64,000 nt of DNA, from the NCBI GenBank assembly GCA_030390025.1, contig CM059432.1:46998001-47062000 (forward strand), given 5' to 3'. Made by a program: the position numbers and the translations under genes. The first letter of the stretch is position 1. The number at the start of each line of letters is the position of its first letter. This DNA comes from Squalus acanthias. Lineage: Eukaryota. Under the pieces are notes generated by a model that did not search any database, was not told the DNA's origin, and was given only the letters and a program-made list of their open reading frames with translations. This document shows positions 4,380-50,729 of this stretch, in pieces.

Positions 4380-4546
4380 CAATTCATTCTCAAGTCAATC
4401 TGAGCTGCAACAACATGAACTTACCAGCGATTTTGCTGATGCACAGCTCCAGAGCTTGGTGATACGTATGCGGGAAAGGACATCTCTGTATAAAGAAAAG
4501 TTGCTTGATCAGGATGGCTTTTCATCAGATGAAACTCCACCAGCCA
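4380..4546 (+). CDS. CNGB3: CNG channel beta-3 coding exon (N-terminal cytoplasmic region, ..FADAQLQSLVIRMRERTSLYKEKLL..)
   Basis: ttttgcag acceptor and gtaagt donor. Peptide resembles CNGB3 [24 protein letters not shown]. Phase-1 end joins the next exon in frame. An alternative acceptor at 4360 is possible. Confidence 0.75.
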
Positions 4547-5857
4547 GTAAGTTTAGAGGCAAAGAGCCAGTTTCGAATGGATTACGCAGCACGCATTAAT
4601 TAATCTACTATGGCATTTAATCATGGAAATTTATTAGCAATGTGTCCAGAGATAATGTAATTATTAATATGTACTAGTGTTCAGAGACTATAGTCTTGTG
4701 GAATCTTATTATGCGTTTATTTTCATCACACTAATTTTGATTTTTTAACATGATGTAGAAACAAAAGTAGCTGAGAATATTTCACAATGTTGGATTTTCA
4801 ATATTGGGAATGAAGTTTGAAGGACTAAATAGCCTTCCCTTACTTTATCAACCTCTTTTAGGGAATTGAATGAGTATGATCGAGTCCATAATAGAGTAGA
4901 TTATATATGGGTTTCAGAAGGAACAGACTTAATGAGCTAAATGGCCTTTTCTTATTCCGTGGCCTCACCTTTCCTCAGAAAGTGACTGGAGGATATGCAG
5001 TTTTGCACCGACACACAGAAAAATATAATTTTTATTCAGAAATGTGATGGTTTCAGTCAGCTGTTTGCTGAAGTTATTGGTATCTACTAAGAAAACACAT
5101 TATAAATAAGAAGTCACACAACACCTAGTTATTATAAATAGGAGCATTCACCCAAATAACAGTACGGCCAGTGTTTGATTTTCAGAAATGACAGGTAAAT
5201 TCTTGAGTCTTCCTGTTCCTCACTCTCACTTCCTGTTGTCATGCTTTAGTCATGCTTTGGTGACATTAATAATGCCTCTATGACATTTAATAATGCTTTA
5301 AGGGTAACAATAACACCTGTTTTTATTACTTTTAATAGCTAACACTGTAACACCTGTTATTAAATCCTCCCATTGAATCACTCAGCTCCACCTGCCAATT
5401 TATTTTTCTTCCATGATAAACACAATAAACACAATTCAAAGTGATTAACTGTGAGCAACATCATTGGAGATTCACTGGCAGCATTAAAATATTTTATATT
5501 TACATTTGACAAGAAGTATTTGCATCAAATTCCAAGACTGAATCACATTTGATCATAACACAAGTGTGACCCCGCTTCCCCTACCCCAAATAACCCCTCT
5601 CCGAGTCTGACTAAGCCTCTCAGTTCACCCCACCCCCACCCTATATGACTTCCCTTTACAAAGTTTGAATTCCATTGTCTGTGAAACTGTGTGAAGTCAG
5701 TCGGCCTCATGCAATGACAGGTAATCTGTGAGAGGCTATGGTACTTGCAATTGATGTTTGCGAACAAAGCAGCGGGACATCTCTATTATGTAATGTGAAT
5801 TTCTGGGTGGGAGGCTGGGTGGTGAGCATCTGGGACAGAGTCGGGAGGACTTGGGAC

Positions 5858-7462
5858 TGTAAGGGATACTCTCCTGACCCTGCGTGTCTCGTGGCCTGTG
5901 AGGTTCACGCGGCTCTGTGCAGCCTGTATGTCAGTGCGGGTCTAGGCCTGGTCTCCAGCCAGTCTGGGAACACTAGACACCCCTGTGAGTGGTTCGAATC
6001 ACTCTCCCTTACGGTTCTAGACACTGGACTTAGATGCGAGAGCAGTAATGGAGATAAAACTCATGTAGACTTGGTTTGAACGGTACGAAATGGAAAATCT
6101 TTATTGCATGATACTTAAAATTATGAAATACATGTCATATGCACAGATTAATGACAGTACAATCTTACAAACAGTTATAATCACTCTTAGGGAAACGAGG
6201 AACGACCAGCACAACGTAAATAGGGCACACATTACAAATATCCTTAAACTTTAAACCCTCCCCTATCAATAACTATCCTAAAACTAGCTTCGTAGGATCC
6301 CGAGACTCATGCTCACCACTCGTAATAACTCGGAGAAAATCCCGAATAGCTGATCGGATGTTTTTCACCGCAGCACCCACGTGTTGGTCAGGAGATCTCC
6401 TGGTCCCACTTGTTTACTGCTTCTGCTGCTCGGTCAGTCGGCTGGACCGTCCGCTGTAGTGAAGACCTCTGTTGGTTGGATACAGGGTATGGTGGAGCAC
6501 CGTTGTCAATATCGCTGATACGATGTGTTTGCACAGTCCAGTTATCATCGATGCAATATGTCTTGTTAAAGAAGAAAACTTCCTGTCGAGAAGACTTGGC
6601 TGATCGACCTACAGGCGCGGTCGGGATTTACTGACCGTGGCGATGGATAAGGTCTTCTTCTCTTCTCCTCTCATCTCATCTCATCTCATCTCATCTCATC
6701 CCGGGCCTTCGGTTCCGCTGCCAGCTACCAACATAGGTCTTTGCAACAGTCTTTTACCCAGGAGCAGCCACGATGATAACAGCAGCAAGCGGCAAGAGTC
6801 AAGAGCAAAAGAGCAAGAGTCACGAACACGAGGCAAGAGAGCGAATGGACGGTTTGGGCCTGCAATTATAGTGCACAGTTCTTCCGTTTCCCGCCCAACT
6901 ACAATGTCCATTCTTTTGTTTAAGGTTTGGCGCCCAAAAATGTCCTGTATGGGTGATCTCTGTCCTTAATGGGTTTCGGGGCTACTCCTGAATGTTTGAG
7001 TACCTGTTAATATTTCTCCCATTGTCAAATCGGTCGGTGTTCCCCCTGGAGGGGTTTGGGGCTTCCAAGTGTCCTGTATAACTACCTGCTAACGGCTCTC
7101 TCATCGTAGAGCCGTTGGGAGTTTACATATTAATGTCCTTTGGATGGGCCCTTGATGGCTTTCCTTTGTACCTGGGAGACCGATTCCAGTATCGATGTTT
7201 ATACTGTAAACCCATAATGTCCTGTGTATTGTCTTCACTGTGCTGAATCGTTATCGATCCTGCAAAAATGTTTATTGGAACGCCATCTTGTCTGCCTGCC
7301 GAAAAGTCTCGAATGTTCTGTCACGCGGTGCGGCGGCCATTTTACAGGCTGCTTGTGTCCAATTTAAACCTGACAGCATTCCGTTGAAATAAAAGCTGTT
7401 TTGAACGAAACTTGTGTTTTCTCCTTATTAAAAATGAAATCGCGATAATTGCGAATTCTACA
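5858..7462 (-). repeat. 3' LTR (1605 bp)
   Basis: Direct repeat of 16839-18443, preceded on the - strand by a polypurine tract. Confidence 0.95.
6100..6105 (-). terminator. Candidate proviral polyadenylation signal AATAAA (3' LTR; copy at 17081-17086)
   Basis: tttatt on the + strand, ~240 bp from the U5 end of the LTR. Confidence 0.55.
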
Positions 7463-7474
7463 GTCCCTCCTGTT
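7463..7474 (-). promoter_or_regulatory. Polypurine tract
   Basis: - strand AACAGGAGGGAC immediately before the TG of the 3' LTR. Confidence 0.7.
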
Positions 7475-7884
7475 GATGCGAATAACTCCGCTTATCGTAT
7501 CAAAAACTCAGTGGTGAGCAATCTTATCTCGATTTCACTCCGAATCCAGTAAATTAATCCCATAAAATTTTAACTTCACTAGGGTCTCTGTGTCGTCCTT
7601 ATTTCCCAAGAAAATCACACTTTATATCACCATAGGCATCATTTGCCCTTAAACTTACACCACTTGTTTTCCTTCCCGGCGTAACCAGGCCGATACCTCA
7701 CGCATCACCTGTATATTTATCTTTTATTCAGGGAAAGGAAAAACAAAACCAAAAACCCAACAATCAACACCATCACCAAAATAAACAAATCCCAACTCTT
7801 AAACATGTCGAGTTTCCAACGTATTTACACTGAGTACAAACTTCCGCGGCGCACGTGGCGAGCGGGAGTGACGCCATTTTCCCA

Positions 7885-10236
7885 TTACACTGCGCTCTCA
7901 TCGTGCACGCGCACGTAACGTTCTCGCCACTCTCCCGTGTTCTCATGCTTGGTGAGGCGCTTGTCTCTTTTACAATGTATGAACAAAAGGTATACTACAA
8001 TAAACACTTGACAGACGACTAAAATGTGGGAGGCTATTCTGACCCATGAGGGCACTTCAATATTCGTGAACAGATTCCACCACGGTGGAACCACTATGTC
8101 CAAAATGTCTGTACCTATCTCGACAGTTTTCTGCTCTAAGGTATAAAAATGCTTTTGTGACACCGCGACGGCTTTCAGAAGTTTGGTTAAATGCTCGGGG
8201 AGAGGGGGAATGAGGTACCCAAAATGTGCGACAAATCGCTGCAAGTCGGTACAATTCTCTTTTACTGTGAGATGAACAGTGGATGGTTCAGGGATTGGGA
8301 TAATTCGCTGTTGTGCTACTTGAACTTCAGCCCTGGGTTTAAAACAGAAACTGCTGTCACTCACCGGACACCGGCTACGGTTTCCATGCTGGTAGTGTTG
8401 CGCTGCAGTGGTAACACAATATGTTCCACCCCCGATGTATGCTACCTGCGGAGGCACATGATCTTGGGCCATTGCCTCCATGGTGCAATTCATGGACTTG
8501 GCGCCAGCCGTTCTGAACCCGCACTGTGGTGTTAAAAAGGCATTCAAGTGCTGGGGGCACAGTATTATGTGTGCTCCCCTGCCACGACAACCAGAGAGAT
8601 CTGTACCTGTCATCGTTTGCTCCCAGCGGATGACGTAAGGTGGAACCGCTGCATAACGAATGTGGGCTCCCCCCTGAATGACACCAATGTTCTCTACCCG
8701 ATACACCGGGGCGGGCTTTGCTGTGTTGCCCAAAACCGGCATGCGTAATACTATTCCCATAATAGTATGGTTTGAACGTCCGCAGTCCACGGGGACTGGG
8801 TAAGCTTCTGAAGCTAGCCTGAGCTGGCACGGACTTAATGCATTCTGAAAAGGGTGGAGCGCCCGCAGGTGTTTGTTACTTATCCAGGACGGGACCAAAC
8901 CTTGTTTTAAATCCTCCAAATTACTGCGGCCCTCGCCCAGTAACCACGCCCCGTAAAGCACGCACACCTCGTTCTGCGCAGCTTGATCGGATGCATTCCG
9001 ATCTTCCCTAATCAGGGCATTTACCGTACGCGCATGTTTCTCCAGCTCTGCTATAATCTCTTTTAAGTGTAGTGTCATGGCTTGGTCCTCGTGCAGACCC
9101 GACCCTACCACTTTATTCTCATCTGTAAGAATATCCTTTAACTGTGTTTTTAAACCATTAATCTGGGTCTGCAGCTCCACACTGTCTAGAGCGTTGACCA
9201 CAGATGTCCCTGTGTTAAAAGCAGTGAACGCATCGTTCACCAAACCCCTTCTTTGCCTCCCTACTTGGTCCAAAACTTCCTGCGGTGCGGTGTATAAACT
9301 TGTCTTATCGATTTCTGCAAAATCAAACTCGTAAAATTGCCTGAACATCTTGGTCAACAGGACCTGGTACAACTGTTCCGTCTTTTTGGGGCACCACTCT
9401 GGTAACCGTACCTCAGTGAGATTTAAAATCACCGAGGCCACCGCGTAATGTACCCCCTGAAATAGTATCTGGTCTGTGGGGACCAGTACCAAACCGTTCC
9501 CGGGTCCCTTACTAGTTTTAGGGCACCCTTCCTCTTCAGTTAGAACCACCGGAATCGTGGGCGGGGCTTTGCGTGGGCGCGTAATGAGCTCAGTGGCATT
9601 TACTGGGATCGGAGAGTATGGGGCTCCGCACCCCCTGGTGCTCGCATCCCACCTCATCCCCTGTCCGTTATCCTGCCACTGGTTAATAAAGAATATGGAG
9701 ATGCCTTTGGGGCAAACGTACTTTGACCCCCACATACAAACATAAATCCCCTCATCTGGTTCCCACCATTTGTCCCAACAGACTTTCACTTGTCCATCTG
9801 TCCCCGTAATTGTCCGATGGGTATTATTACCCAGTCGCTCCCACTCAACCGAAGAGTTCCTCATAGTTTTGCTCAGCTTTCGCAGCCACCACCATCGGCT
9901 CAATGGGACATTCCCACTGCAGGTCAAACAAATCCGTTTGCCGACGGTGACGCTGATCCTGGGTGCGATGATCCGTACTTTGGGGCACATTAAAGAAGTC
10001 TCTTTGTAGGCGAACCCCGATGTGCTGGAATACTCCGTTGAGTTCGTTCCCAGCCATCCTGGCCACCTTCCCTTGTGGAAATAGGTGCTGGTCCCTTCTG
10101 CCTTCCGTCTTCCGGTTCCATCCACCGCGATGGGGGCCGTGTCCCCGGAACATCCAAACACCACGACATCCTTGGTGAGGCCCCGATAGGCCAATCCACA
10201 TCCGATTGCCACGAGCAAAACTAGAAGTCGTTCCAT
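7885..10236 (-). CDS. env: Envelope glycoprotein (783 aa): signal peptide, Ig-like domain, RQRR furin site, class I F-like fusion subunit, TM anchor
   Basis: Hydrophobic N-terminus, RQRR|GLVNDAF, heptad repeats, Cys-rich region, C-terminal TM; splice acceptor (tctgatcacag) 13 nt upstream of the ATG. Confidence 0.85.
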   Translation of the reverse strand: MERLLVLLVAIGCGLAYRGLTKDVVVFGCSGDTAPIAVDGTGRRKAEGTSTYFHKGRWPGWLGTNSTEYSSTSGFAYKETSLMCPKVRIIAPRISVTVGKRICLTCSGNVPLSRWWWLRKLSKTMRNSSVEWERLGNNTHRTITGTDGQVKVCWDKWWEPDEGIYVCMWGSKYVCPKGISIFFINQWQDNGQGMRWDASTRGCGAPYSPIPVNATELITRPRKAPPTIPVVLTEEEGCPKTSKGPGNGLVLVPTDQILFQGVHYAVASVILNLTEVRLPEWCPKKTEQLYQVLLTKMFRQFYEFDFAEIDKTSLYTAPQEVLDQVGRQRRGLVNDAFTAFNTGTSVVNALDSVELQTQINGLKTQLKDILTDENKVVGSGLHEDQAMTLHLKEIIAELEKHARTVNALIREDRNASDQAAQNEVCVLYGAWLLGEGRSNLEDLKQGLVPSWISNKHLRALHPFQNALSPCQLRLASEAYPVPVDCGRSNHTIMGIVLRMPVLGNTAKPAPVYRVENIGVIQGGAHIRYAAVPPYVIRWEQTMTGTDLSGCRGRGAHIILCPQHLNAFLTPQCGFRTAGAKSMNCTMEAMAQDHVPPQVAYIGGGTYCVTTAAQHYQHGNRSRCPVSDSSFCFKPRAEVQVAQQRIIPIPEPSTVHLTVKENCTDLQRFVAHFGYLIPPLPEHLTKLLKAVAVSQKHFYTLEQKTVEIGTDILDIVVPPWWNLFTNIEVPSWVRIASHILVVCQVFIVVYLLFIHCKRDKRLTKHENTGEWRERYVRVHDESAV

Positions 10237-10519
10237 CCTTCCTTGGTTCCTGTGATCAGATAGAATGAGGTAGCCAGCCTCGCAAAAAGTCTCTGGCTTT
10301 TGTGAAGGGTGAGCGGGTCCCCTGACCTCGCCTCACGTAAACTTCAACGTTTGCTAAATAGACTTCCTCTAAACCTAGCCTTAAAACTCCCATCATTTTA
10401 TCGTTATCTGTTAAAACACTACAAACTTAAACTTATTAAAACTACTTAAAACTTTAAACTAAAACCTAAAACCTTAAACTAATAACTTTACAATGCCGCC
10501 CGTTCTCAGGGCGGCCCCT

Positions 10520-13500
10520 TTAAATCCTGAGAAGGCTGCTGCGAGCTCTTCCCGACGGTGGGAGGGCACTGACCCTTCCCTCTGATCTGCCGCAGCCTGT
10601 TGCTGCGCTGACCCTTTCCTCTGATCTGCCGCAGCCTGTTACTGCCTCGATGTGGCCTGTCTCTACCCGGGTTATCTTAACCTGAAACTTACGCCCTGGG
10701 GCAGCCTGTGGACCTGACCACGTCTTCCTGGGCTGGGGTACTCTGCTTGACCTACGGGGAATTGCTATGGGCGGGGGCTCCGTGACGGACGGACCGGGTC
10801 CCGAGACCTTCAACGGGATGACCTGGGGTTCCATCACAGGCGCCAGCCCCGCCTCCGCTGACTCCGCCTCCCTAACCTCGGGGCTGGCAGTTCGGGGCCC
10901 CGCCCTGCTCGGCCCAGCAGGCGGCCCTTCACTCGCGAACTCTGCCTCCCCTGAGGACTGGACGTTCAAAGCGGGCGGCCACACCTCTGGGAACCACATA
11001 GCGGCTGGCCCGGCCTCCTCTAGCTCCTTCCTCCTGCTGTCGGGACCTGCAGCTTGTGTGTCCACCCCGTATGGATCTCTACCTAGCGGCCCCAATCCTT
11101 CCAGACCGTTCCTCTGAAACCACCCGTCATCATCACTATGCTCATCTGCACTATCCTCATCTGACCAGGGTACCCTGGGGTCCTCGTCATCTAACCCCCA
11201 ACTCCAGAAAAACGCTGCATGATCGTCCGGGATGTCCCTTCCCCTGATGCAAGCTGCTACGCCTGCCTGTGTGCCTTGTGGTCCTACCTGGGGCTGTGTT
11301 TTCCCATTGGCGGGATTTACCCCTGTAGTTTTCCCTTGCGCACCCGGCTGGTACAGTTTACATTGGTTTATGTGGAACCACTTAGTGCGCCGAGGTACTT
11401 TTACGGCGTAAACCATGGGACTCGCCTTGTCTACAATGTTGTAGGGTCCCATATACAGTGGTTCCAGACTCCCTACTCTGGCGTAGTTTCTGACCATGAC
11501 CTGGTCTCCTACTTCCCACTCCCGCGTTTTGCGGGGTTCCAGCAACAAGCGATTGCCCTGGTGCTGCCTTCCCATGTTCCCAGCCGCCTGCTCATAAACT
11601 TGCTTCAGGCGCTCCAAGAGAGTTTGGGCGAACTTGTCCCTGCTGATCTCTTGAAGCTGACCCTCAGTGAGCACCGGGGCTAGCACATGGGTGGGGGTTC
11701 GCATGAGCCTGCCGGTCATTACCTCGTGCGGGGAGTACCCCGTACTTTTTGACTGACTGGCCCGGACCCCCATGAGGACTAAAGGCAGAACTTCCGCCCA
11801 TTTTTGGGGCGAGTTCCTAGTCTCTTTCCTCAATTTCTCCTTCAGGGTCCGGTTCATACGTTCAACAATCCCGGATGACTGGGGATTGTGTGCTACGTGC
11901 CACTTCCCTTCAATGCCCAAAAGCATGAGGGTGTTCTGCATCACCTGGCCGGTGAAATGACTCCCTTGGTCTGACTCCACGAAACGGGGGAGTCCCCACC
12001 GCGAGAACACTTCCCGGACCAAGATTTTTGCTGTACCCAGTGCCGTAGCTGTTCGACAAGGGAAGGCTTCCACCCACTTGGAAAACACATCCACCAGGAC
12101 GAGGCAGTACTTATAACCTCCCTGGGTGGTGGGCAGGGGTCCTATATAGTCGATCTGTATCGACTGCCATGGTCCCTCTACCCTTCTTACGTGTCCCATG
12201 GGCACCTTCCTTTTCTGGGGGTCTGGGTTGTTTGCAGCGCACACAAGACAGTTTGCACAGAACTCGCGGACTTGTTCCCTGAGCCCTGGCCACCATCCCG
12301 CTTGCTCTACCCGTTGCCAGGTAACCTCGGGCCCGGGGTGCCCTGCCCCTGGTCCCTCGTGAGCCAACTGGAGGAATTCCCTCCTGTGCTGCTGCGGCAC
12401 AACCCACTGCTCCTCGCGGAACAGCATGCCTTCCTTTACTGAGAGGGTTGCCGTACTGTACGGACCTTCTACCTGCCTCCCCTCAGCAATCGTTTTTAGG
12501 ACTGCTTTTAGGGCGGGATCCTGGGCTTGGACGGTCTTGAGGTCTAGGGGCAATGCTACCCTGGTGTTCCCGGTATTCCCGTCCCCACCTCGGACCGCTG
12601 CTATGGGTCCGGTTCTATAGGGGTTCCAGAAAGTACCGTCGCGGGCACCCTCCCTGGCTAGCGCATCCGCCTGCCGGTTGCCCTCCCCACGGGGCTCTGT
12701 GGAGGAGTGAGCTTTCACCTTATGGATGAAAATCTCCCCTTCCTCCCCTACTGCTGCTGCTAAGATCTTCTCCAGCAAGGGCTTTACCGTTAAAGGTCGC
12801 CCGTCCGCGGAGGTGTATCCACGGCGGGACCAAATGGCCAGGTATTCCGTACACGAATTGCAGGTGAACATACTGTCCGAGCAAATCGTGTATGGGGTTG
12901 GGAAAATGTCTGGGTGGGTTACCACGTACACCACGGCAGACAGCTCAGCCTGCTGCGCGCTCATGGTGCTAGGGAGCTTGATCGCCAGGGCAAGGTCTGC
13001 CGCAGGGTCATAAACTCCACACCCTGTGAGTCGCTCGCCAGCAGATACTGTGCTAGACCCATCAACATAAATCTCGCGCCCAGTGGGATGTATCCCGGCC
13101 CGTAAACCTATGTTGACTTCCCACACCCCCTCCACCGAACACCGGTGGGCTGTACCGGGGTATACCAAATTGGCCGCAAGCCTGGGCTCGCAAAGACCTT
13201 TTACTCTGATGTCCAACTGGGAGAGAAGAAGGGTCCAACGCGCAATGCGTGCGCTGCTTACGGTCCCGTCTTTAATCCTCCCATCCAGAAGCATCTTAGT
13301 TGGTGTGTGATGTGTGAGGAGAGTGATGGGAGAGAGCCCTGTGAAGATCGCTGATCTTTTCACAGCCCAATGCGTGGCTAAAAGGTGCCTTTCGCAATTG
13401 GAAAAACTTCTCTCCACATCCGTTAATACCCTGGATGAATAGACAACCGGCCTTAGCTTGCCGTGACGCTCTTGGAGCAGCACGGCGCTTAAGCTGTCTC

Positions 13501-15022
13501 CGCTGGCAGCTACCTCCAGGAAAAACTCCTTCCCCCCATCTATGGCCCCTAAGGCTGGCGCGGTCTGCAGATCTCTTTTTAACTTCTCGAAGGCTGCTTG
13601 GCAGCCCTCGTCCCAAAGCCACTCTACTCCCTTATGGAGGAGTCGGAGGAGCGGCGCCGCTGTGGCCGCATAATCCTCGATAAAATCCCTGCAGTAACCG
13701 GTCAGTCCCAAGAAGGACCTCACACCCCTTACGTTGTTGGGAATCGGTAATTCTTGTACCGACTCCCTCCTTGCTTTGTCTATGGCTCTTTCCCCAGCGC
13801 GTAGGGTCAGTCCCAGGAATTTTACTTCCTGCTGACCGATACGTGCTTTCTTTGGGTTTACTTTAAAACCCTTTCTCGCTAACAGCTCCAATAACTCGTC
13901 CAGCAGTGGTCCGTGCTCCTCCCTTGAGTCCGTAAATAGGAGCAAATCATCCACATACTGTACTATCTGATTGGGCTGACTAAACTCCTTTAAACTTCCT
14001 GCCATACACTGGTGAAAAATACTGGGGCTATTGTGGAAACCTTGTGGCAAGCAGTTCCACGTGTACTGTTGCCCTTTAAACGTAAAGGCAAACTTGTACT
14101 GGTCCTCTCGCCGCAGCGGGATGGACCAAAAACCGTTCGAGATATCCAGCACCGTGAACGTGGTCGCGGACGCTGGGATGCTCCCTATTAGGTCAGCAAC
14201 TGCTGCTACTGTGGGCGCGCAGGCGGGGATGTTACTGTTAAGGACTCTGTAGTCCACCGTGGCTCTCCACGAATTATCCGGCTTCCTAACCGGCCATAAT
14301 GGGGAGTTCACGTGTGTGGCTATCGGCCTCAACACGCCCTGCTGCACCAAGGAAGACATTGCTGCCTCCATATCGGGTTCTGCTTCTTTGGGGAAGTTAT
14401 ACTGCTTTTGGGGTCGGGTCATGGGGTCCCCATCTACGCTGACCTCAAACCCGACCACCCTCCCACAATCGTGCTTGTGGGTTGCAAACGCGTGCATATT
14501 ATCTGTCACGTACGTTTGCATGTCCGTTGGGACATCTGCGACCATAAGCCTGAGGTCGTAGCCTCCGGATGGCTGTACGGTACACAGGACCCCTGTTTCT
14601 TCCTCCCCTTGAATTACCATTACCTCGCCTTTTTCCCCTTTAGCCCCCCAGAGACAGTGATTTCTGAGGTCCACGAGGATCCCGTGTCCCGCTAGCAGAT
14701 CGGACCCGAGAATACCTCTTCCACCCCCCTTTTGCCATGCCATTAGTATACACTTCCACTTAAGGCGAAGTGTCCCTAAACGAATGGATAGCGGGAGGGA
14801 AAATGTGCCAGCCTGTTCTTTCCCTGTGAACCCTGCTAGCGTGAATGGGACCTTGGTAGATAGCGGCGAGTCAAAAGGGTCATCTGTATGGATTATGGTG
14901 CAAGAAGCTCCCGTGTCCAACAAATAACTGCCCTTTTGTTTCTCTACCTCCATCTCCACCACAGGTCGCCTCCACGCATCATAGCTGAGCGGACACAGGT
15001 AGACGGGCTGTGCTGGTTCTAG
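10520..15022 (-). CDS. pol: Pol (PR-RT-tether-RNase H-IN plus C-terminal extension), in frame with gag after a single TGA
   Basis: LLDTGAS protease; LPQGF and YVDD RT; YVDGSS/AQQAEL/SDS/GNRQAD RNase H; HHCC, QIDY/SDQG/VER DDE integrase; GPY motif. Confidence 0.95.
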   Translation of the reverse strand, partial: LEPAQPVYLCPLSYDAWRRPVVEMEVEKQKGSYLLDTGASCTIIHTDDPFDSPLSTKVPFTLAGFTGKEQAGTFSLPLSIRLGTLRLKWKCILMAWQKGGGRGILGSDLLAGHGILVDLRNHCLWGAKGEKGEVMVIQGEEETGVLCTVQPSGGYDLRLMVADVPTDMQTYVTDNMHAFATHKHDCGRVVGFEVSVDGDPMTRPQKQYNFPKEAEPDMEAAMSSLVQQGVLRPIATHVNSPLWPVRKPDNSWRATVDYRVLNSNIPACAPTVAAVADLIGSIPASATTFTVLDISNGFWSIPLRREDQYKFAFTFKGQQYTWNCLPQGFHNSPSIFHQCMAGSLKEFSQPNQIVQYVDDLLLFTDSREEHGPLLDELLELLARKGFKVNPKKARIGQQEVKFLGLTLRAGERAIDKARRESVQELPIPNNVRGVRSFLGLTGYCRDFIEDYAATAAPLLRLLHKGVEWLWDEGCQAAFEKLKRDLQTAPALGAIDGGKEFFLEVAASGDSLSAVLLQERHGKLRPVVYSSRVLTDVERSFSNCERHLLATHWAVKRSAIFTGLSPITLLTHHTPTKMLLDGRIKDGTVSSARIARWTLLLSQLDIRVKGLCEPRLAANLVYPGTAHRCSVEGVWEVNIGLRAGIHPTGREIYVDGSSTVSAGERLTGCGVYDPAADLALAIKLPSTMSAQQAELSAVVYVVTHPDIFPTPYTICSDSMFTCNSCTEYLAIWSRRGYTSADGRPLTVKPLLEKILAAAVGEEGEIFIHKVKAHSSTEPRGEGNRQADALAREGARDGTFWNPYRTGPIAAVRGGDGNTGNTRVALPLDLKTVQAQDPALKAVLKTIAEGRQVEGPYSTATLSVKEGMLFREEQWVVPQQHRREFLQLAHEGPGAGHPGPEVTWQRVEQAGWWPGLREQVREFCANCLVCAANNPDPQKRKVPMGHVRRVEGPWQSIQIDYIGPLPTTQGGYKYCLVLVDVFSKWVEAFPCRTATALGTAKILVREVFSRWGLPRFVESDQGSHFTGQVMQNTLMLLGIEGKWHVAHNPQSSGIVERMNRTLKEKLRKETRNSPQKWAEVLPLVLMGVRASQSKSTGYSPHEVMTGRLMRTPTHVLAPVLTEGQLQEISRDKFAQTLLERLKQVYEQAAGNMGRQHQGNRLLLEPRKTREWEVGDQVMVRNYARVGSLEPLYMGPYNIVDKASPMVYAVKVPRRTKWFHINQCKLYQPGAQGKTTGVNPANGKTQPQVGPQGTQAGVAACIRGRDIPDDHAAFFWSWGLDDEDPRVPWSDEDSADEHSDDDGWFQRNGLEGLGPLGRDPYGVDTQAAGPDSRRKELEEAGPAAMWFPEVWPPALNVQSSGEAEFASEGPPAGPSRAGPRTASPEVREAESAEAGLAPVMEPQVIPLKVSGPGPSVTEPPPIAIPRRSSRVPQPRKTWSGPQAAPGRKFQVKITRVETGHIEAVTGCGRSEERVSAATGCGRSEGRVSALPPSGRARSSLLRI

Positions 15023-16834
15023 TCATGGGGCACTATTAGACGGTCCTGCGGCACCTACGGGGCCGGTTGCGACCGCCACCTGTCCACGCGCATTCAAAAC
15101 CATCTTGCGCATGACTCCTAACACTGCCTCGAGGTCTTCGGGAGAGGTGGGTGCCTTTGCTTCCTTAGCCGGGACAGGCGCCTGGGCTCGGACCGCGGGA
15201 TTTTTATCCTTGGAATCCTTCCAAGGGTTCCTGCAGTGCTTGCGCCAGTGCCCTGTCTTCCCACACCCGTAACAGGCATTACTTGCCTGTGGGGCGCGAT
15301 TACCCTCCTGATGCCACTCTCTTTGAGCCGGGGCTGCGGGTCGTACCTCATGTACTCTTCCCTTAAAGGGACGTGTTGCCATACCCCTTATGTTACGGTA
15401 ACCTAACGTGAGTCGATTCAAGACCGACTCTTCCGTAAGGTTGAGGTCATTGGGATCGAACCAGGCTTTTGCCTGCTCTCTAACGGCTGGTAAACTGTTG
15501 GCTATTATGCACCTAAGCCAATGAATTAAAGCGGCGCCTTCCACATCTTCGCGCTCGGGCGCACCTAGACAGCTGCGCTCATATACTGGCCACAGCCTGT
15601 CGGCAAAAACCTTCGGGGGTTCTCCCTCCATCTGCACTGTCTGTCCCACTCTAGCAAACGGACCTCCGTCGTTCGCTCCCACTACTTCTAGGACCTCATT
15701 TTTCAATTCCTCATAACTTTTATTACCCCTCTTGCTATCGCCTGAGAGACACTGAAGGACCGAGCTATCTAATGAGAACAGCAGCATTTTTGCTGTCTCC
15801 CCATCATCGCAGCCGTTGATGGCTGCGGCTTGCTCAACTTCCCTAAAATGTACGGAAGGGTCGTCTATCTCGGTCAGCTTCCTTACGTGGTTTATCATAG
15901 CCCTCAGCTGATGTGAACTGTGAGGCAACACCAGCTGTCCGAGGAGATCCCCCGGTTCTTCCCCACCGTTCCTGCTTGGGCCCCTTTTAATCCCCGTTAC
16001 TGGATACAACGATCCCTTTTCTACTTCCTTTTCAACGGGCTCTTTTGTTTCTTCCGTTGCTTCCTCCCTAACCCAGGTTTCTGAATAGCTGGGTGGCGCG
16101 GAGGGCGCAGTGGCTACTACTTCTTCCGCTTTACATGGTGGGGAATTTCTAAATCTCTCATTTACTAGCGGCTGGCGTGCCGACGGATTAATAAGGCACA
16201 CCATGCCGTTCGCATTATTCACGGCCTTTTTGAGGCTCTCTATCTCTTTTTCGCAGGCGCTATGGTCGGCTCCCTGAAACTTATCCTCAAGGGCCAACTT
16301 ATACGCCGACCTAACCCCCATTAAGCTCTCTTCTTGAGTTCTTATCTGGGCAGCTTGACGGTTACATCTTTCCTTCATCCTACTCTCGTTTAATTTTGCT
16401 TCAGTGATCTGGCACTCGAGATACTCTACCCTTGTTTTAAGGTAGCTGGAGACTTCCTGGCTTTCCTGGCGTAACTCATTTAAACTCTTAATGAGCGCCT
16501 CCCCTCCAGAAACCTTCTCCTCCATTTCCTCCTCTAACTGCTTGATTCGAGCGGTTAGCGCTGTATTGGTCTGGTTTGAAATCTGAACCTGCCTTTTGTA
16601 GCACATAAGCCAGACTGCTTTCTCAACTGCCTTTTTATGCTCCTTACTATCCGTCCACCTTTCAGCTGCCTCTAATGGGCTCTTATCCGCTAACAGTTCG
16701 CTTATCCACTTTTTCGTTAGATTAACCTTTCCAAATACGTAATCCGCTATCTTTTCCTGCATCACATTTCGTACAGTCATTCCAAAATCTAACACACTAC
16801 CCTCTCGCTGCCAGTGTCCTGCCGCGGTCGCCAT
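15023..16834 (-). CDS. gag: Gag (603 aa): N-terminal coiled coil, PSAP/PPSY late domains, capsid-like region, CCHC zinc knuckle
   Basis: CYGCGKTGHWRKHC (15233-15274), APSAPPSY, position between PBS and pol. Confidence 0.9.
   Translation of the reverse strand: MATAAGHWQREGSVLDFGMTVRNVMQEKIADYVFGKVNLTKKWISELLADKSPLEAAERWTDSKEHKKAVEKAVWLMCYKRQVQISNQTNTALTARIKQLEEEMEEKVSGGEALIKSLNELRQESQEVSSYLKTRVEYLECQITEAKLNESRMKERCNRQAAQIRTQEESLMGVRSAYKLALEDKFQGADHSACEKEIESLKKAVNNANGMVCLINPSARQPLVNERFRNSPPCKAEEVVATAPSAPPSYSETWVREEATEETKEPVEKEVEKGSLYPVTGIKRGPSRNGGEEPGDLLGQLVLPHSSHQLRAMINHVRKLTEIDDPSVHFREVEQAAAINGCDDGETAKMLLFSLDSSVLQCLSGDSKRGNKSYEELKNEVLEVVGANDGGPFARVGQTVQMEGEPPKVFADRLWPVYERSCLGAPEREDVEGAALIHWLRCIIANSLPAVREQAKAWFDPNDLNLTEESVLNRLTLGYRNIRGMATRPFKGRVHEVRPAAPAQREWHQEGNRAPQASNACYGCGKTGHWRKHCRNPWKDSKDKNPAVRAQAPVPAKEAKAPTSPEDLEAVLGVMRKMVLNARGQVAVATGPVGAAGPSNSAP
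16816..16833 (-). promoter_or_regulatory. Primer-binding site, complementary to the tRNA-Arg(TCG) 3' end
   Basis: - strand TGGCGACCGCGGCAGGAC, 5 nt after the 5' LTR; complement of the vertebrate tRNA-Arg(TCG) end GTCCTGCCGCGGTCG-CCA (tRNA sequence recalled). Confidence 0.8.
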
Positions 16835-16838
16835 TTTC

Positions 16839-18443
16839 TGTAAGGGATACTCTCCTGACCCTGCGTGTCTCGTGGCCTGTGAGGTTCACGCGGCTCTGTG
16901 CAGCCTGTATGTCAGTGCGGGTCTAGGCCTGGTCTCCAGCCAGTCTGGGAACACTAGACACCCCTGTGAGTGGTTCGAATCACTCTCCCTTACGGTTCTA
17001 GACACTGGACTTAGATGCGAGAGCAGTAATGGAGATAAAACTCATGTAGACTTGGTTTGAACGGTACGAAATGGAAAATCTTTATTGCATGATACTTAAA
17101 ATTATGAAATACATGTCATATGCACAGATTAATGACAGTACAATCTTACAAACAGTTATAATCACTCTTAGGGAAACGAGGAACGACCAGCACAACGTAA
17201 ATAGGGCACACATTACAAATATCCTTAAACTTTAAACCCTCCCCTATCAATAACTATCCTAAAACTAGCTTCGTAGGATCCCGAGACTCATGCTCACCAC
17301 TCGTAATAACTCGGAGAAAATCCCGAATAGCTGATCGGATGTTTTTCACCGCAGCACCCACGTGTTGGTCAGGAGATCTCCTGGTCCCACTTGTTTACTG
17401 CTTCTGCTGCTCGGTCAGTCGGCTGGACCGTCCGCTGTAGTGAAGACCTCTGTTGGTTGGATACAGGGTATGGTGGAGCACCGTTGTCAATATCGCTGAT
17501 ACGATGTGTTTGCACAGTCCAGTTATCATCGATGCAATATGTCTTGTTAAAGAAGAAAACTTCCTGTCGAGAAGACTTGGCTGATCGACCTACAGGCGCG
17601 GTCGGGATTTACTGACCGTGGCGATGGATAAGGTCTTCTTCTCTTCTCCTCTCATCTCATCTCATCTCATCTCATCTCATCCCGGGCCTTCGGTTCCGCT
17701 GCCAGCTACCAACATAGGTCTTTGCAACAGTCTTTTACCCAGGAGCAGCCACGATGATAACAGCAGCAAGCGGCAAGAGTCAAGAGCAAAAGAGCAAGAG
17801 TCACGAACACGAGGCAAGAGAGCGAATGGACGGTTTGGGCCTGCAATTATAGTGCACAGTTCTTCCGTTTCCCGCCCAACTACAATGTCCATTCTTTTGT
17901 TTAAGGTTTGGCGCCCAAAAATGTCCTGTATGGGTGATCTCTGTCCTTAATGGGTTTCGGGGCTACTCCTGAATGTTTGAGTACCTGTTAATATTTCTCC
18001 CATTGTCAAATCGGTCGGTGTTCCCCCTGGAGGGGTTTGGGGCTTCCAAGTGTCCTGTATAACTACCTGCTAACGGCTCTCTCATCGTAGAGCCGTTGGG
18101 AGTTTACATATTAATGTCCTTTGGATGGGCCCTTGATGGCTTTCCTTTGTACCTGGGAGACCGATTCCAGTATCGATGTTTATACTGTAAACCCATAATG
18201 TCCTGTGTATTGTCTTCACTGTGCTGAATCGTTATCGATCCTGCAAAAATGTTTATTGGAACGCCATCTTGTCTGCCTGCCGAAAAGTCTCGAATGTTCT
18301 GTCACGCGGTGCGGCGGCCATTTTACAGGCTGCTTGTGTCCAATTTAAACCTGACAGCATTCCGTTGAAATAAAAGCTGTTTTGAACGAAACTTGTGTTT
18401 TCTCCTTATTAAAAATGAAATCGCGATAATTGCGAATTCTACA
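16839..18443 (-). repeat. 5' LTR (1605 bp)
   Basis: Direct repeat of 5858-7462 at offset 10981, TG..CA ends, followed by the PBS. Confidence 0.95.
17846..17852 (-). promoter_or_regulatory. Candidate LTR TATA box (TATAATT); YY1-like motifs further upstream in U3
   Basis: - strand cacTATAATTgcag; CGCCATCTTG and GCGGCCATTTT motifs near 18262-18325. Confidence 0.4.
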
Positions 18444-18510
18444 GGACAGAGGCCTAGAAATTGCAGTACGCTGGAAACCTCCCGGTAACCATGCAGGCCA
18501 AGGCTAATGG

Positions 18511-19432
18511 TTATATAAAACTTATAGTAAAGGATCCTCTAGGAAAGAGTGATCATAATATGATAGAATTTCACATTGAGTTTGAAAGTGACATTCTAGA
18601 GTCCGACACTAGAGTTTTAAACTTAAACAAAGCCAATTACATAGGATTGAGGGGCGAGTTAGCTAAGGTAGATTGGGAAATTAGATTAAACAGTATGACA
18701 GTAGATAAACAGTGGCAATCATTTAAAGAAATATTCCAAAATTCTCAACAAATACACATTCCATTGAGAAATAAAAACTCCACGGGAAAAGTGATCCATC
18801 CGTGGATAACTAAAGAAGTTAAGGATAGTATTAGATTAAAAGAAGAGGCTGATAATGTTGCAAAGAATAGTAGTAAGCCTAAGAATTGAGAGAGCTTTAG
18901 AAACCAGGAAAGGATATGTACAGTTTTGGTCTCCTTATTTAAATAAGGATATACTTGCCTTAGAGGCGGTGCAACGAAGGTTCACTAGATTGATCCCTGG
19001 GATGAGAGGGTTGTCCTATGAGGAGAGATTGAGTAGATTGGGCCTATACTCTCTGGAGTTTAGAAGAATGAGAGGTGGGATTGACAGGGTAGATGCTGAG
19101 AGATTGTTTCCCCTGGCTGGAGAGTCTAGAACTAGGGGGCATAGTCTCAGGATAAGGGGCTGGCCTTTTAGGACTGAGATGAGGAGGAATTTCTTCACTC
19201 AGGGTTGTGAATCTTTGGAATTCTCTGCCCCAAAGTGCTGTGGCTGCTCAGTTGTTGAGTATATTCAAGCTGAGATAGATATATTTTTGGACTCCAGAGG
19301 AATTAAGGAATATGGGGATAGGGCAGGAAAGTGGAGTTGAGGTCGATGATCAGCCATGATCTTATTGAATGGTGGAGCAGGCTCGAGGGGTCGTATGGCC
19401 TACTCCTGCTCCTAATTTTTATGTTCTTATGT
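18511..19432 (+). mobile_element. Internally deleted CR1 fragment
   Basis: PLGKSDHNMIEF then jump to VQFWSPY..QRRFTRLIPG; ttatgttcttatg tail. Confidence 0.75.
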
Positions 19433-20504
19433 ACTTCAGATCTCAGAGATCAAAACACTTAACATCCATTGGTGATTCCTAATCCAAACCTCAAGCTTAC
19501 TCTTCAAGTCACTCAGAAGTAATCACTTGCAATATTCTGCATCATCCCATTTGTTACATTCAGTATTTCAATCTCGGGCAGGACAGTTTCAAATAAGCAA
19601 ACCACCAAAAAATAAATTAAGCTGTACCTACAAATCTCAAGGGTTACCTCTCAAGACCTAGGCTTGTGAATAATATAAACACTACTACATGGAGAGTCCT
19701 GGCTGTCATACATTTGTTAGTTGAAGCGTCCTCATGGCTGTTAACACGGAGGGCGGTAAGAGAAGCGGTTTTATCCAAAATGAATGAGTGGGCGTCAACT
19801 CAGCGTTGCACGCTGATTGACGTCACGCTTCGACTAATTTCAATACTTTCAGCGAGCACAGGCAACGGCAGCGCTGCCGACCTGCCAAAAATGGCGGCCG
19901 CCGCAGGAGCCACTGGCAGTGGGTTCAAGTGCGGCGGCCGCCATTTTTTTCCTGAAGCTAGCCTTAATGGCCAGCGGTAAGACCTCAAATTTCTAGGCTA
20001 TTGTGAGGAGTATGAAGCTCTCCAGGAGGCCAGCATGCATAGGTGGCAGAGCCAGAATTCTCGAGGCAGCTTTCCCTGGGCAGGGAGAGCATGAAGCTGG
20101 AGCCTAAAGTCACATTGGAAGGGAGGGATCAAGTGAGAGGCTGGGCTGAAATTGAGCAAGGCAGGCAGCTGGGAGCACATTAGAGATTGTAGGTGAACTG
20201 AGTTCCCACATTTGATTCCACAGGTCTGCAAGACAAATGGGAAGACTGCTAAGTATCGAAAAGATTACCATGGCAATCTTGTGTAGTACAGAAAATGTTT
20301 CTCGCACTTGCTCCCAGTTTTAGGCTATGGATAAGGCAGTAATCATGCACTCTTGTCATTTCCACCCATGCTGCACTAGAGCTGGCCTTGATTGAAGGCT
20401 GGCCCTCTTCTCCAAAAAGAGACACTCTTGTCTGCAGGACCTCTAGAACTCGATCACTAAAAGGAACAAAAATAAATACAAGCTGCTTTTTTTGGGAGTA
20501 GATG

Positions 20505-27284: not shown

Positions 27285-30200
27285 CATAAGAACATAAGAA
27301 ATAGGAGCAGGAGTAGGCCATTTGGCCCCTCGAACCTGCTCCGCCATTCAATAAGATCATGGCTGATCCGATCTTGACCTCAACTCCACTTTCCCGCCTG
27401 CTCCCCATAACCCTTGACTCCCCTGTAGCTCAAATATCTGTCTATCGCCACCTTGAATATATTCAATGACTCCGCCTCCACAGCTCTCTGGGGTAGAGAA
27501 TTCCAAAGATTCACGACCCTCTGAGAGAAGAAATTCCTCCTCATCTCCGTTTTAAATGGGTGACCCCCTATTCTGAAATATGCCTCCTAGTTCTAGATTC
27601 CCCCACGAGGGGAAACATCCTCCCTGCATCTACGCTGTCAAGCCCCCTCAGAATCTTATATGTTTCAATAAGTTCACCTCGATTCTTCTAAACTCCAATG
27701 AGTATAGGCCCAACCTTTCTTCATAAGACAACCCCTTCATCTCAGGAATCAAACTAGTGAACCTTCTCTGAACTGCCTCCAATGCAAGTATATCCCTCCC
27801 TAAATAAGGAGACCAAAACTGGACACAGTACTCCAGATGTGGTCTCACCAGTGCCCTGTACAGTTGTAGCAAGACTTCCCTACTTTTATACTCCATCCCC
27901 CTTATAGGGGCCAACATTCCATTTGCCTTCCTAGTTACTTGCTGTACCTGCATGCTAACTTTTTGTGTTCCATGTACGAGGACCCCTAGATCCCTCTGTA
28001 CCACAGCATTTTGTAGTCTCCATTTAAATAATAATTTGCTTTTTTATTCTTCCTACCAAAGTGGATAACTTCACATTTTCCCACATTATACTCCATCTGC
28101 CAAATTTTTGCCCACTCACTTAATCTATCTATATCCCTTTGCAGACTCCTGGGGCGGGATCTTGCCAGCCTTGGGGAGGCGGGTATGGAGGCGGGACTGC
28201 CATCTTGCCAGGAGGCGGGTAGCCGTCCCACGCCGGGTCCTGTCTCCTTGGAGGCGGGATGGGATTACAGCCACTTAACTGCCTGTTAACAGGTAGTTAA
28301 CAGGCAGAAAATAGGCTTATCACCATTTTGCCCACACAAGTGCGGGCTTCCCGAAGGCTCCAAACCCCGCCATGGTCACCGAGGCGAGTAGTGGGTCTGC
28401 GGGGGTCGGAGGGGTGCAAAAGTGTGCTGTAGAGGTAAGTGATGGGTGCAAGTGTGGAGAGGTGAGTATCTGAGATAAGTGCAAAGTGTTAGAAAAAGTG
28501 TACTTACCTTTGTTTCTTCTTGTAGGTTTCAGTCGGTTTGTATGCGGAGAGTCTTACACCTCCGCGGTAGAGATGACAGATGGCCGTTGCATTCTCCAAT
28601 GCAACAACCATCTAATTTCTGCAAAAGAAAGAGGTTTGATGAGGTGTTGAATTCAAGACCTCATCAAACTACAGAGAATGTCAGTGTTTGACAGCTTCAC
28701 AGAGCTGTCAAACTATGACAATTCATCTGTCAAAAGTTTTTGACAGATGAAACATCATACGTTGACGTTCTCTGCAATCGGCTTTCCCTTAATTGGCCTG
28801 CTAAGCCCGCTGGGCGGGCTTAACAAGGTCAATCAAGGGAAAATAGCGTGAGTTGGCCAGAAGTTGATGGAGGCGGGACTGAAACCCGACAAGTGGGAGT
28901 CCCGCCTCCAAAAGCTCCCCATTGGCAAAATCACCCACTTGTGTCTTCTTCACAGCTTGCTTTCCCATCTATCTTTGTATCAACAGCAAATTTGGCTACA
29001 GTACACTCGGTCCCTTCATCCAAGTCATTAATATAGATTGTAAATAGTTGAGGCCCTAGCACTGATCCCTGTGGCACCCCACTAGTTACAGTTTGCCAAC
29101 CTGAAAATGACCCATTTATCCCGACTCTATGTTTTCTGTTAGTTGGCCAATACACTATCCATGCTAATATATTAACCCCAACCCCGTGAACTCTTATCTT
29201 GTGCAGTAACCTTTTATATGGCACCTTATCGAATGCCTTCTGGAAATCCAAATACACTACATCTACTGGTTCCCCTTTATCCACCCTGCTCGTTACATCC
29301 TCAAAGAACTCTAGTAAATTTGTCAAACACAATTTCCCTTTCATAAAACCATGTTGACTCTGTTTGATTGTATTATGATTTTCTAAATGTCCTGCTATTA
29401 CTTCCTTAATAATGGATTCCAGCATTTTCCCAATGACAGATGTTAGGCTAACTGGCCTATAGTTTCCTGCTTTCTGTCTCCCTTCTTTCTTGAATAGGGG
29501 CGTTACATTTGCGGTTTTCCAATCCGCTGGGACCTCTCCAGAATCCAAGGAATTTTGGTAGATTACAACCAACGCATCCACTATCTCTGCAGCCACTTCT
29601 TTTAAGACTCTAGGATGCATGCCATCAGGTCCAGGGGACTTGTTGTCCTTTAGTCCCATAAGTTTGCCTCGTACTTTTTCTCTAATGATAGTGATTGTTT
29701 TAAGTTCCTCCCTCCCTATAGCCCCTTGATTATCAATTATTATTGGAATGTTTTTAGTGTCTTCTACCGTGAAGACCGATACAAAATATTTGTGTAAAGT
29801 CTCTGCCATTTCCCTGTTTCCCATTATTAATTCCCCAGTCTCATCCTCTAAGGGACCAACGTTTACTTTAGCTACTCTCTTCCTTTTTATATATCTTTAG
29901 AAGCTCTGTCTGTTTTTATATTTTTTGTTAGTTTACTCTCATAATCTATCTTCTCCCTCTTTATTATTTTTTTAGTCATCCTTTGCTGCTTTCTCAAAAT
30001 TTCCCAATCCTCTGGCCTACCACTAATCTTCGCAACATTGTATGCCTTTTCTTTCAATTTGATACCATCCTTAATTTCCTTAGGTTAGCCACGGATGGTT
30101 CATCCTTCTCGTAGTCTTTCTTTCTCACTGGAATAAACCTTTGCTGAGAGTTATGAAATATCTCCTTAAATGTCTGCCACTGCTTATCTACCGTCTTACC

Positions 30201-50615: not shown

Positions 50616-50729
50616 CTCTTCTTTCTTGACTTTACATTTTTCCACGTCTGGATTGTAGAGGATATCCCTGCTGGTGCACTTGTCATGGCTATGCTCTCAA
50701 TCCTGAGAGGCAACTACCTCTCCAATTTA

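Follow-up and report, generated by a model that had tools for sequence, protein, structure and literature searches.

An intact and very young provirus in Squalus acanthias belongs to an abundant endogenous retrovirus family, probably on the SnRV-like side of Retroviridae

Introduction

In the accessible text of the papers concerned, snakehead retrovirus (SnRV) is placed in an intermediate position between the epsilon and the spumalike retroviruses, with one zinc finger and a gag-pol readthrough (Jern et al. 2005), and SnRV-like elements are named as the main endogenous retroviruses (ERVs) of the coelacanth, with further occurrences in amphibians and zebrafish (Naville and Volff 2016). An elephant-shark lineage, CmiERV lineage I, clusters with SnRV, and the SnRV-like copies of this host were dated to 54-75 million years (Han 2015, accessible part). 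Lokiretroviruses have been reported from 120 ray-finned fish species, and bullfrog and coelacanth are also listed as hosts; some of them carry an extra smc gene, and their Env has sequence similarity to Pfam family PF00523 (Wang and Han 2020, PMC7947760). Here we describe a provirus of 12,586 nt on the minus strand at positions 5858-18443 of a 64,000-nt stretch of the Squalus acanthias genome (GenBank assembly GCA_030390025.1, contig CM059432.1, positions 46,998,001 to 47,062,000 of the forward strand). This whole stretch is called the window, and coordinates without a contig name refer to it. The original prediction, made from the letters of the window, was an intact and very young lokiretrovirus-like provirus with an F-type envelope in a cartilaginous fish. 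According to our analysis the provirus integrated recently and is one copy of a highly abundant elasmobranch ERV family, which probably belongs to Retroviridae proper, on the SnRV-like/epsilon-like side, and not to the lokiretroviruses.

Results

Structure of the provirus

The complete order LTR-PBS-gag-pol-env-PPT-LTR (long terminal repeat, LTR; primer binding site, PBS; polypurine tract, PPT) was borne out, and every part was located on the minus strand. Both LTRs are 1,605 nt long with TG...CA ends. The repeat comparison places the 5' LTR at 16839-18443 and the 3' LTR (in element sense) at 5858-7462. Where no mismatch had been noticed by eye, the alignment of the two LTRs now shows identity over all 1,605 nt; positions 5857-7463 and 16838-18444 are identical across 1,607 nt if one common flanking base on each side is included. 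The same 4 nt, GGAC, stand beside both LTRs as a clean target-site duplication (left copy 5854-5857, right copy 18444-18447).

All three reading frames are open, as predicted. These are gag with 603 aa (15026-16834), pro-pol with 1,500 open codons counted from the gag stop (10520-15022, same frame as gag, checked by eye and by translation) and env with 783 aa (7885-10236). The identical LTRs and open frames confirm an intact and very young provirus.

Copies of the family in the host genome

In the host assembly of 3.71 Gb, 30-mers from the provirus were counted with up to 2 mismatches. The LTR-PBS junction was matched 2,997 times, the env cleavage site 1,911 times and the region of the reverse transcriptase (RT) motif YVDD 1,850 times, and the reversed control gave 0 matches in each case. 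The family to which the provirus belongs has thousands of near-identical members. Of 3,309 first-look candidates in a search with the LTR alone, 42 were high-scoring. On the contig denoted C1 there are 93 exact junction matches, and 50 of them have env at the full-length spacing of ~7.6 kb. In another 25 the distance to env is ~4.2 kb and an exact RT 30-mer is missing, which corresponds to a pol-less form; the remaining 18 show other arrangements. A pol-less copy (C4) lacks ~3.7 kb from protease to integrase and keeps gag, the pol tail and env.

Seventeen further copies were read, each as two unjoined halves; they had been selected as best LTR matches and are thus biased to young copies. The LTR pairs of 15 of these copies are without substitution, one pair has 1 and one has 6 substitutions, and 11 of the 17 pairs are also without insertion or deletion. 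When the copy in the window is included and a tandem array is counted once, 17 insertion events result. A 4-nt duplication was found in 16 of them and a 5-nt match in one, and the flanks all differ. In 11 of the 17 copies gag, pol and env are uninterrupted (tblastn continuity, excluding the codon at the split). The other six have a truncated env (one copy), an env frameshift (two), a pol stop (one), a pol frameshift (one) or a mostly deleted pol (one).

The tandem array (C21:9873242-9896098) has the order LTR-internal-LTR-internal-LTR with one outer duplication, CAGA; env is truncated in its first unit and frameshifted in its second. Two copies are nested in older family members; the sequences that flank these two copies are pol-like with 84-87% and gag-like with ~75% amino-acid identity. 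The search of the ESM Atlas returned one unnamed chordate cluster only (0.84).

Pol and its relatives

Along the readthrough product the Pfam domains follow in the order protease, RVT_1 (E 1e-35), RT_RNaseH_2, RNase_H, Integrase_H2C2 and rve. The protease motif DTGA is located at 14906-14917 and the RT at 13802-14290, with YVDD at 13946-13957. An RNase H-like tether (RT_RNaseH_2, aa 470-558; 13217-13615) is followed by the RNase H (RNase_H, aa 650-793; 12644-13075), the zinc and core domains of the integrase (11882-12400), the GPY motif (11438-11449) and a low-complexity Pol tail of ~275 aa (10523-11350). The tether and the second RNase H noticed in the original prediction are therefore present according to Pfam; this feature is common to all retroviruses, so it does not discriminate between them.

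Identities were counted by hand over part of the RT only, on the alignment that Wang and Han 2020 print in their supplement. Over 138 residues, from QY to just past LPQGF, the provirus shares 70 residues (51%) with SnRV, 53 with HERV-L, 51 (37%) with murine leukemia virus (MuLV) and 49 (36%) with the lokiretrovirus Loki-Lch. In a sub-stretch of 56 residues SnRV scores 37, and the row before Xen-1, whose name we infer to be walleye dermal sarcoma virus (WDSV), scores 32. The peptide NGFWSI occurs three times in that supplement, each time in SnRV. For CmiFLERV and XtrFLERV the supplement has entries in tree figures alone. The RT blocks of the lokiretroviruses read FWT.KV...QYKLAFSF, PFGY and IYVDDIL, whereas the provirus has FWSIPL...QYKFAFTF, LPQGF and QYVDDLLL.

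Among solved structures in the PDB, the RT-RNase H region scores 241 bits against the RT of murine leukemia virus (MLV) and the related XMRV, 204-218 against foamy virus PR-RT, 146 against Ty3 and ~60 against human immunodeficiency virus (HIV). The integrase scores 123 bits against prototype foamy virus (PFV) and 109 against Ty3. The closest named relatives of Pol are frog and Latimeria proteins annotated as 'NYNRIN-like', with 44-45% identity over RT-RNase H. That these frog and coelacanth relatives are the published lokiretroviruses was considered and rejected, since three 12-residue peptides (from the Pol of the provirus, Latimeria and bullfrog) and their common 7-residue core were found 0 times in that supplement, where Loki-Rca and Loki-Lch are printed.

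An IQ-TREE analysis of 35 RT-tether rows, assembled without SnRV, epsilon, foamy or lokiretrovirus sequences, places the provirus in one clade (SH-aLRT 95) with a Logan protein, four frog rows and Latimeria. This clade is nested in a retroviral clade of 12 rows (99) together with gamma-like ERVs and one beta-like ERV, and the gypsy-like rows stand apart. The nearest relatives of Env, Gag and Pol come from a skate and sharks, in agreement with the cartilaginous-fish host expected from the sequence.

A predicted F-type envelope

Env begins with a signal peptide (aa 1-16) and has a furin-type site, RQRR (9247-9258), directly followed by a fusion peptide (9187-9246). The predicted model shows a long helix (aa 331-444), a beta-rich core (aa 477-645) and a membrane-proximal helix (aa 679-715). 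A membrane anchor (aa 731-755; 7972-8046) and a tail of 28 aa complete the protein, which contains 10 N-glycosylation sequons. The basic site, hydrophobic peptide, long helix, beta core, membrane-proximal helix and anchor are the features of a class Ib fusion protein. Env would be cleaved by a furin-type protease and act as a class I fusion machine.

Pfam gave nothing above chance for Env, and hmmscan at E up to 0.1 found no match to PF00523 for Env or 17 of its relatives; one of these relatives has a sub-threshold match to Baculo_F (E 0.0011). A full HMMER scan of 1.84 billion representative proteins yielded 49 relatives of Env. Twelve of them carry a named source, and these sources are five sharks, a skate and three frogs, with no teleost. 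The family alignment conserves the basic cleavage site, the hydrophobic peptide behind it, cysteines and the C-terminal anchor, and the family profile matches gp130 of foamy virus (8rm1, E 2e-4).

The AlphaFold model of Env has a mean predicted local distance difference test score (pLDDT) of 55, with 80-93 in the core (aa 240-300 and 420-650) and less than 50 for aa 7-235. Foldseek places F proteins of paramyxo- and pneumoviruses on top (best 1ztm, E 4e-11; 227 matches at E <=0.001). VIA-align with postfusion F proteins gave Z 13.2 for that of human parainfluenza virus 3 (hPIV3; rmsd 17.5, 332 aligned) and Z 12.2 for that of Langya virus (rmsd 5.9, 328 aligned). Env superposes on F proteins over aa 243-654 with Z 10-13. 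In a library of viral structures (BFVD) the model matches the predicted Env structures of walleye epidermal hyperplasia virus (WEHV-1, E 2.4e-12) and WDSV (3.6e-9; entries Q9WHI8 and A4GTG3). It also matches Env of feline foamy virus (4.5e-5), the glycoproteins of arlivirus, lispivirus and chuvirus, baculovirus F and paramyxovirus F0.

By its predicted fold Env is F-type, and this part of the original prediction is upheld by the Foldseek match (E 4e-11) and the superposition (Z 13.2). The F-like fold does not mark a lokiretrovirus, because foamy virus Env, for which a class Ib F-like fold was shown (Fernandez et al. 2024, accessible part), and the predicted Env structures of epsilonretroviruses have the same fold. 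As a fold common to foamy and predicted epsilon Envs, it leads to the known epsilon and spuma lineages, which the original prediction had regarded as incompatible with a lokiretrovirus.

For the N-terminal part of Env (aa 1-235; 9532-10236), 'Ig-like domain-containing protein' is the name of a shark relative, and a weak V-set match was obtained with a frog-type one. A frog Pol model (P0005) continues into sequence that looks, by eye, like the beginning of an Env relative (P0068), which suggests that pol and env of this kind may travel together.

Primer binding site, Gag and readthrough

The PBS (18 nt, TGGCGACCGCGGCAGGAC, 16816-16833) begins 5 nt past the 5' LTR, and 18 of its 18 nt are complementary to the 3' end plus CCA of host tRNA-Arg(TCG), as called by ARAGORN. 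A generic pattern of T-loop and PBS complement has 426 matches in the host genome, and its reversed control has 0. The primer of reverse transcription would be host tRNA-Arg(TCG). SnRV may also have a tRNA-Arg primer site. The genes for this tRNA lie in long tandem arrays with a period of ~1,620 nt and with tRNA-Ser(GCT) in the unit (contig C26:38.99-42.2 Mb).

The gag ATG (16834) overlaps the PBS. Codons 1-6 of gag are the primer site and encode the N-terminus MATAAG, and there is no leader between PBS and gag. A gag start embedded in the PBS is also present in a skate relative (MATTKG) and in one further relative (MATAAG). A gag start codon inside the PBS that is kept in two relatives represents an unusual genome compaction.

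For Gag, Pfam gave nothing above chance, and Foldseek with the predicted Gag model found no match at E <=0.001. Its weak rows (E 0.009-0.05) are nearly all retroviral capsids, HIV-1 and MLV among them. The model contains a long helix (aa 64-183; 16286-16645; pLDDT 74-87) and a helical, capsid-like part (aa ~300-486). A coiled-coil Gag had been taken as a lokiretrovirus trait, but Wang and Han 2020 describe an smc gene in some lokiretroviruses instead. Gag has a single CCHC zinc knuckle (aa 521-534; 15233-15274) and, at aa 244-250 (16085-16105), overlapping PSAP and PPSY motifs. PSAP and PPxY are classical late-budding motifs of enveloped retroviruses. Gag would bud at membranes with the assistance of the endosomal sorting complex required for transport (ESCRT).

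Past the gag stop TGA (15023-15025) pol continues in the gag frame. The stop context UGACUAG is a type II readthrough motif; this motif, UGA-CUA-G, is known in alphaviruses and some human genes (PMC13517186, accessible part). An unusually stable fold 3' of the gag stop was not detected, as the 106 nt downstream fold no better than shuffled sequences (z -0.06). Gag-Pro-Pol would arise through readthrough of the gag UGA.

Age of the insertion and public sequencing runs

For the elephant shark a rate of 2.2e-10 per site per year has been assumed (Han 2015, accessible part). At this rate, 0 differences in 1,605 nt give a 95% upper bound of ~4 million years for the age of the provirus; at the mammalian rate the bound is ~0.4 million years. 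If the provirus is pooled with 16 further LTR pairs (one substitution in ~27,000 nt, the copy with 6 substitutions being omitted), the slow rate yields a mean age on the order of 80,000 years. The figures are rough, and the sample leans to young copies.

Twenty public runs from 10 studies contain at least half of the sampled words of a 10-kb stretch; none of them is listed as RNA. One DNA run (X1) has a summed word depth of ~20 over the left flank and of 9e4 to 4e5 over the provirus, values which do not represent a copy number. In a contig of this run 1,349 of 1,381 letters lie on 4507-5857, and its last 32 letters are off the LTR. Such a contig would fit a pre-integration (empty) allele in a sample with both alleles and hints at one. 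A second haplotype without the insertion was not found in the assembly, where the right flank matches only itself at 100% and is otherwise made up of two common repeats. These repeats (18509-18915 and 18917-19435) are two interspersed families with many copies of 84-94% identity (16,748 first-look candidates).

Sequencing runs that carry the labels of six other organisms contain 53-58% of the words sampled from the stretch. In one of them (X10) the pieces are ~99.3% identical to the provirus, with 21 differences in 2,915 letters over the eight longest pieces of 302-532 letters. An RNA run with another organism label (X21) gave 0 reads on the stretch, which says nothing about expression; run X6, RNA by guess only, showed no joint.

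Selection among the copies

Pairwise pN/pS (replacement over silent differences per site, Nei-Gojobori) is 0.14 for gag (16 copies, 911 silent and 468 replacement differences), 0.08 for the first 879 codons of pol (15 copies, 668 silent and 166 replacement) and 0.06 for env (15 copies, 1,444 silent and 270 replacement). Changes after integration should be neutral, yet silent differences are in excess. Hence, the differences among these sequences indicate that the source lineages of the copies replicated under selection for working proteins, Env included. Since the differences between copies are mostly silent, with a pN/pS of 0.06 in env, they also point to a spread by reinfection. Belshaw and colleagues reportedly used the same argument from silent excess in 2004 for reinfection in human ERVs. 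We propose that the thousands of copies would have arisen mainly via repeated germ-line reinfection by enveloped particles, up to very recent times, and that the shorter, pol-less form would have been copied in trans.

Further features of the window

In the 3' LTR a candidate TATAA (6866-6870), a candidate AATAAA (6100-6105) and a (TCTCA)n microsatellite (6646-6715) were found; the borders of U3, R and U5 were set from motifs alone. The purine-rich PPT (7463-7474, by sequence reading) directly adjoins the 3' LTR. Between the pol stop and the env ATG lies a non-coding spacer (10237-10519), and a pyrimidine-rich run with terminal CAG at ~10250 is a candidate splice acceptor for env. No Rfam family reaches its gathering score across 5500-18800.

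Beyond the spans of gag, pol and env there is no other ATG-started sense ORF of at least 100 aa that could represent an accessory gene; the sole further sense-strand ORF of this size with an ATG sits within env in a different frame. A 57-codon sense ORF (7773-7946, minus strand) overlaps the final 20 codons of env in the position of the SnRV 3'ORF and may be due to chance.

Outside the provirus, the window contains ORFs of the endonuclease/reverse-transcriptase type of non-LTR retrotransposons (28931-30896 and 49047-52966, both minus strand). A Myb/SANT-like ORF (58384-58944, plus strand) and an ORF for a DDE_Tnp_4 transposase of 440 aa (61117-62439, plus strand) form a typical PIF/Harbinger pair.

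Discussion

The placement on the SnRV-like side of Retroviridae is based on several likenesses. The provirus shares with SnRV the single zinc knuckle in Gag and the layout with readthrough of an in-frame stop, and its RT and integrase fall in between those of gamma and foamy type. Frogs, coelacanth and elasmobranchs, which host its nearest relatives, fit the range reported for the SnRV clade. The epsilonretroviruses WDSV and WEHV resemble it as fish retroviruses with gag-pol readthrough and matching predicted Env structures; the provirus differs from them in having no cyclin-like or other accessory genes and in the size of Env, which has 783 aa compared with ~1,200-1,300. In contrast to the old SnRV-like ERVs of the elephant shark, the present family is enormous and very young.

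A number of observations weigh against this placement or against a spread by reinfection. The likeness to SnRV rests on a hand count over part of the RT and not on a tree with reference groups, and in the 35-row tree the branching among the clade of the provirus, the gamma-like rows and the one beta-like row is unsupported. According to the accessible descriptions, the Env tail of SnRV has 136 residues as opposed to 28 here, SnRV has accessory ORFs whereas none are evident in the provirus, a non-coding leader separates PBS and gag in SnRV but the gag ATG of the provirus lies inside the PBS, and the stop context is UAG-GGC in SnRV and UGA-CUA-G here. With regard to reinfection, thousands of copies and a gag start embedded in the PBS are more typical of retrotransposons. 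The three copies with broken env were omitted from the env pN/pS, the pairs share history and are not independent, and the copies were picked as best LTR matches and lean to the young side.

As a lokiretrovirus, the provirus would instead represent, in a cartilaginous fish, the sister lineage of all retroviruses. The layout LTR-gag-pol-env, the tether with RNase H and an Env that is F-like by fold, with basic cleavage site, fusion peptide and anchor, agree with this assignment, and the tether block resembles, by eye, the printed Pol of a fish lokiretrovirus. CGIN1 is presumably the same gene as NYNRIN. Thus the name 'NYNRIN-like' of the Pol relatives would also fit, as the lokiretrovirus integrase is reported to be close to CGIN1 (PMC7947760). 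However, the RT shares 49 of 138 residues with Loki-Lch and 70 with SnRV, the closest of the references compared, and its blocks differ from those of both Loki-Lch and Loki-Rca; neither the 12-residue Pol peptides nor their 7-residue core occur in the supplement. The provirus has no smc gene, and PF00523 is matched neither by Env nor by its 17 relatives. The present Env forms a separate sequence family, with elasmobranchs and frogs as the only named sources; no teleost is found among the 12 named relatives despite 120 ray-finned hosts of lokiretroviruses. In the lokiretrovirus search, 0 of 3 Orectolobiformes were positive, and Callorhinchus and Rhincodon are unstarred in the supplement (Wang and Han 2020, PMC7947760). 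The accessible portion of the lokiretrovirus literature surveyed contains no mention that we found of these viruses in cartilaginous fishes. We consequently regard the lokiretrovirus assignment of the original prediction as very improbable and do not retain it. A foamy-like (class III) ERV is suggested by the match of the Env family profile to foamy gp130, by the integrase, whose nearest solved structure is that of PFV, and by a DIGS survey which, in its accessible part, counts most RTs of cartilaginous-fish ERVs to clade III. The core of the predicted Env (aa 243-654) superposes on F proteins, with an identity to them of just 6-16%, and the rest of the proviral genome is not foamy-like. Foamy-like elements are characterized by a tRNA-Lys PBS, YIDD, GGGTG at the PPT-LTR junction and a Gag without zinc finger (Ruboyianes and Worobey 2016, accessible part); the provirus has an Arg PBS, YVDD, no GGGTG at this junction and one CCHC. 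Moreover, its pol is in frame with gag and not separate, and the MLV-type RT outscores the foamy RT. A foamy-like origin is consequently extremely improbable.

As to the origin of the copies, the same element could have multiplied inside germ cells as an LTR retrotransposon with env as a passenger. About 1,900 to 3,000 copies, a gag start within the PBS without a leader, and the pol-less derivative that accounts for 25 of the 93 exact junction matches on contig C1 would be explained in this way. Such a purely intracellular spread is nevertheless unlikely, because among the three genes pN/pS is lowest in env (0.06), the env and RT 30-mers are about equally frequent (1,911 and 1,850), the pol-less form retains env, and Gag possesses the PSAP/PPSY budding motifs. 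Segmental duplication or an assembly artefact would account for the very high identity among the copies, but is hardly conceivable, as flanks and target duplication are specific to each of the 17 insertion events, and in independent sequencing runs the depth of the proviral sequence is very high compared with that of the flank. Returning to reinfection, a more far-reaching version is that an SnRV-like retrovirus with an F-type fusion protein circulates in elasmobranchs and re-enters the germ line by Env-mediated infection, which might thereby have produced the thousands of env-bearing copies and the ~99% identity across differently labelled hosts. This scenario is possible, but we regard it as rather doubtful.

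The best-supported placement is in the SnRV-like/epsilon-like part of Retroviridae, where cartilaginous-fish ERVs have been on record since 2015. For this host class, the family seems new in how young and how large it is; also seemingly new are an env retained and selected across thousands of copies, the gag start inside the primer site and, as far as the predicted model indicates, an F-like and foamy-like Env in this lineage. In the lokiretrovirus and SnRV/shark literature we found no description of this family; Repbase and Dfam were outside this search. A survey of ERVi elements, retroviruses in the course of invading genomes, covers 37 host orders in the section concerned, none of them of cartilaginous fishes, and the copy number observed here greatly exceeds the few elements per taxon given there (Wang and Han 2023, accessible part).

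An F-like envelope is a tempting shortcut to a lokiretrovirus. The fold spans fish-associated retroviruses, however, being solved for foamy viruses and predicted for epsilonretroviruses and the present lineage. If a circulating virus were indeed the source, the thousands of env-bearing copies would depart from the rule that env is lost in high-copy ERV families, and the ~99% identity between differently labelled hosts could mean a recent spread between species. The identical LTRs, the open genes and the selection on env would be evidence for recent or ongoing retroviral activity in cartilaginous fishes. With approximately two to three thousand copies and an env under purifying selection, the family would be a natural choice for testing by which route enveloped retroelements enter the germ line of vertebrates.

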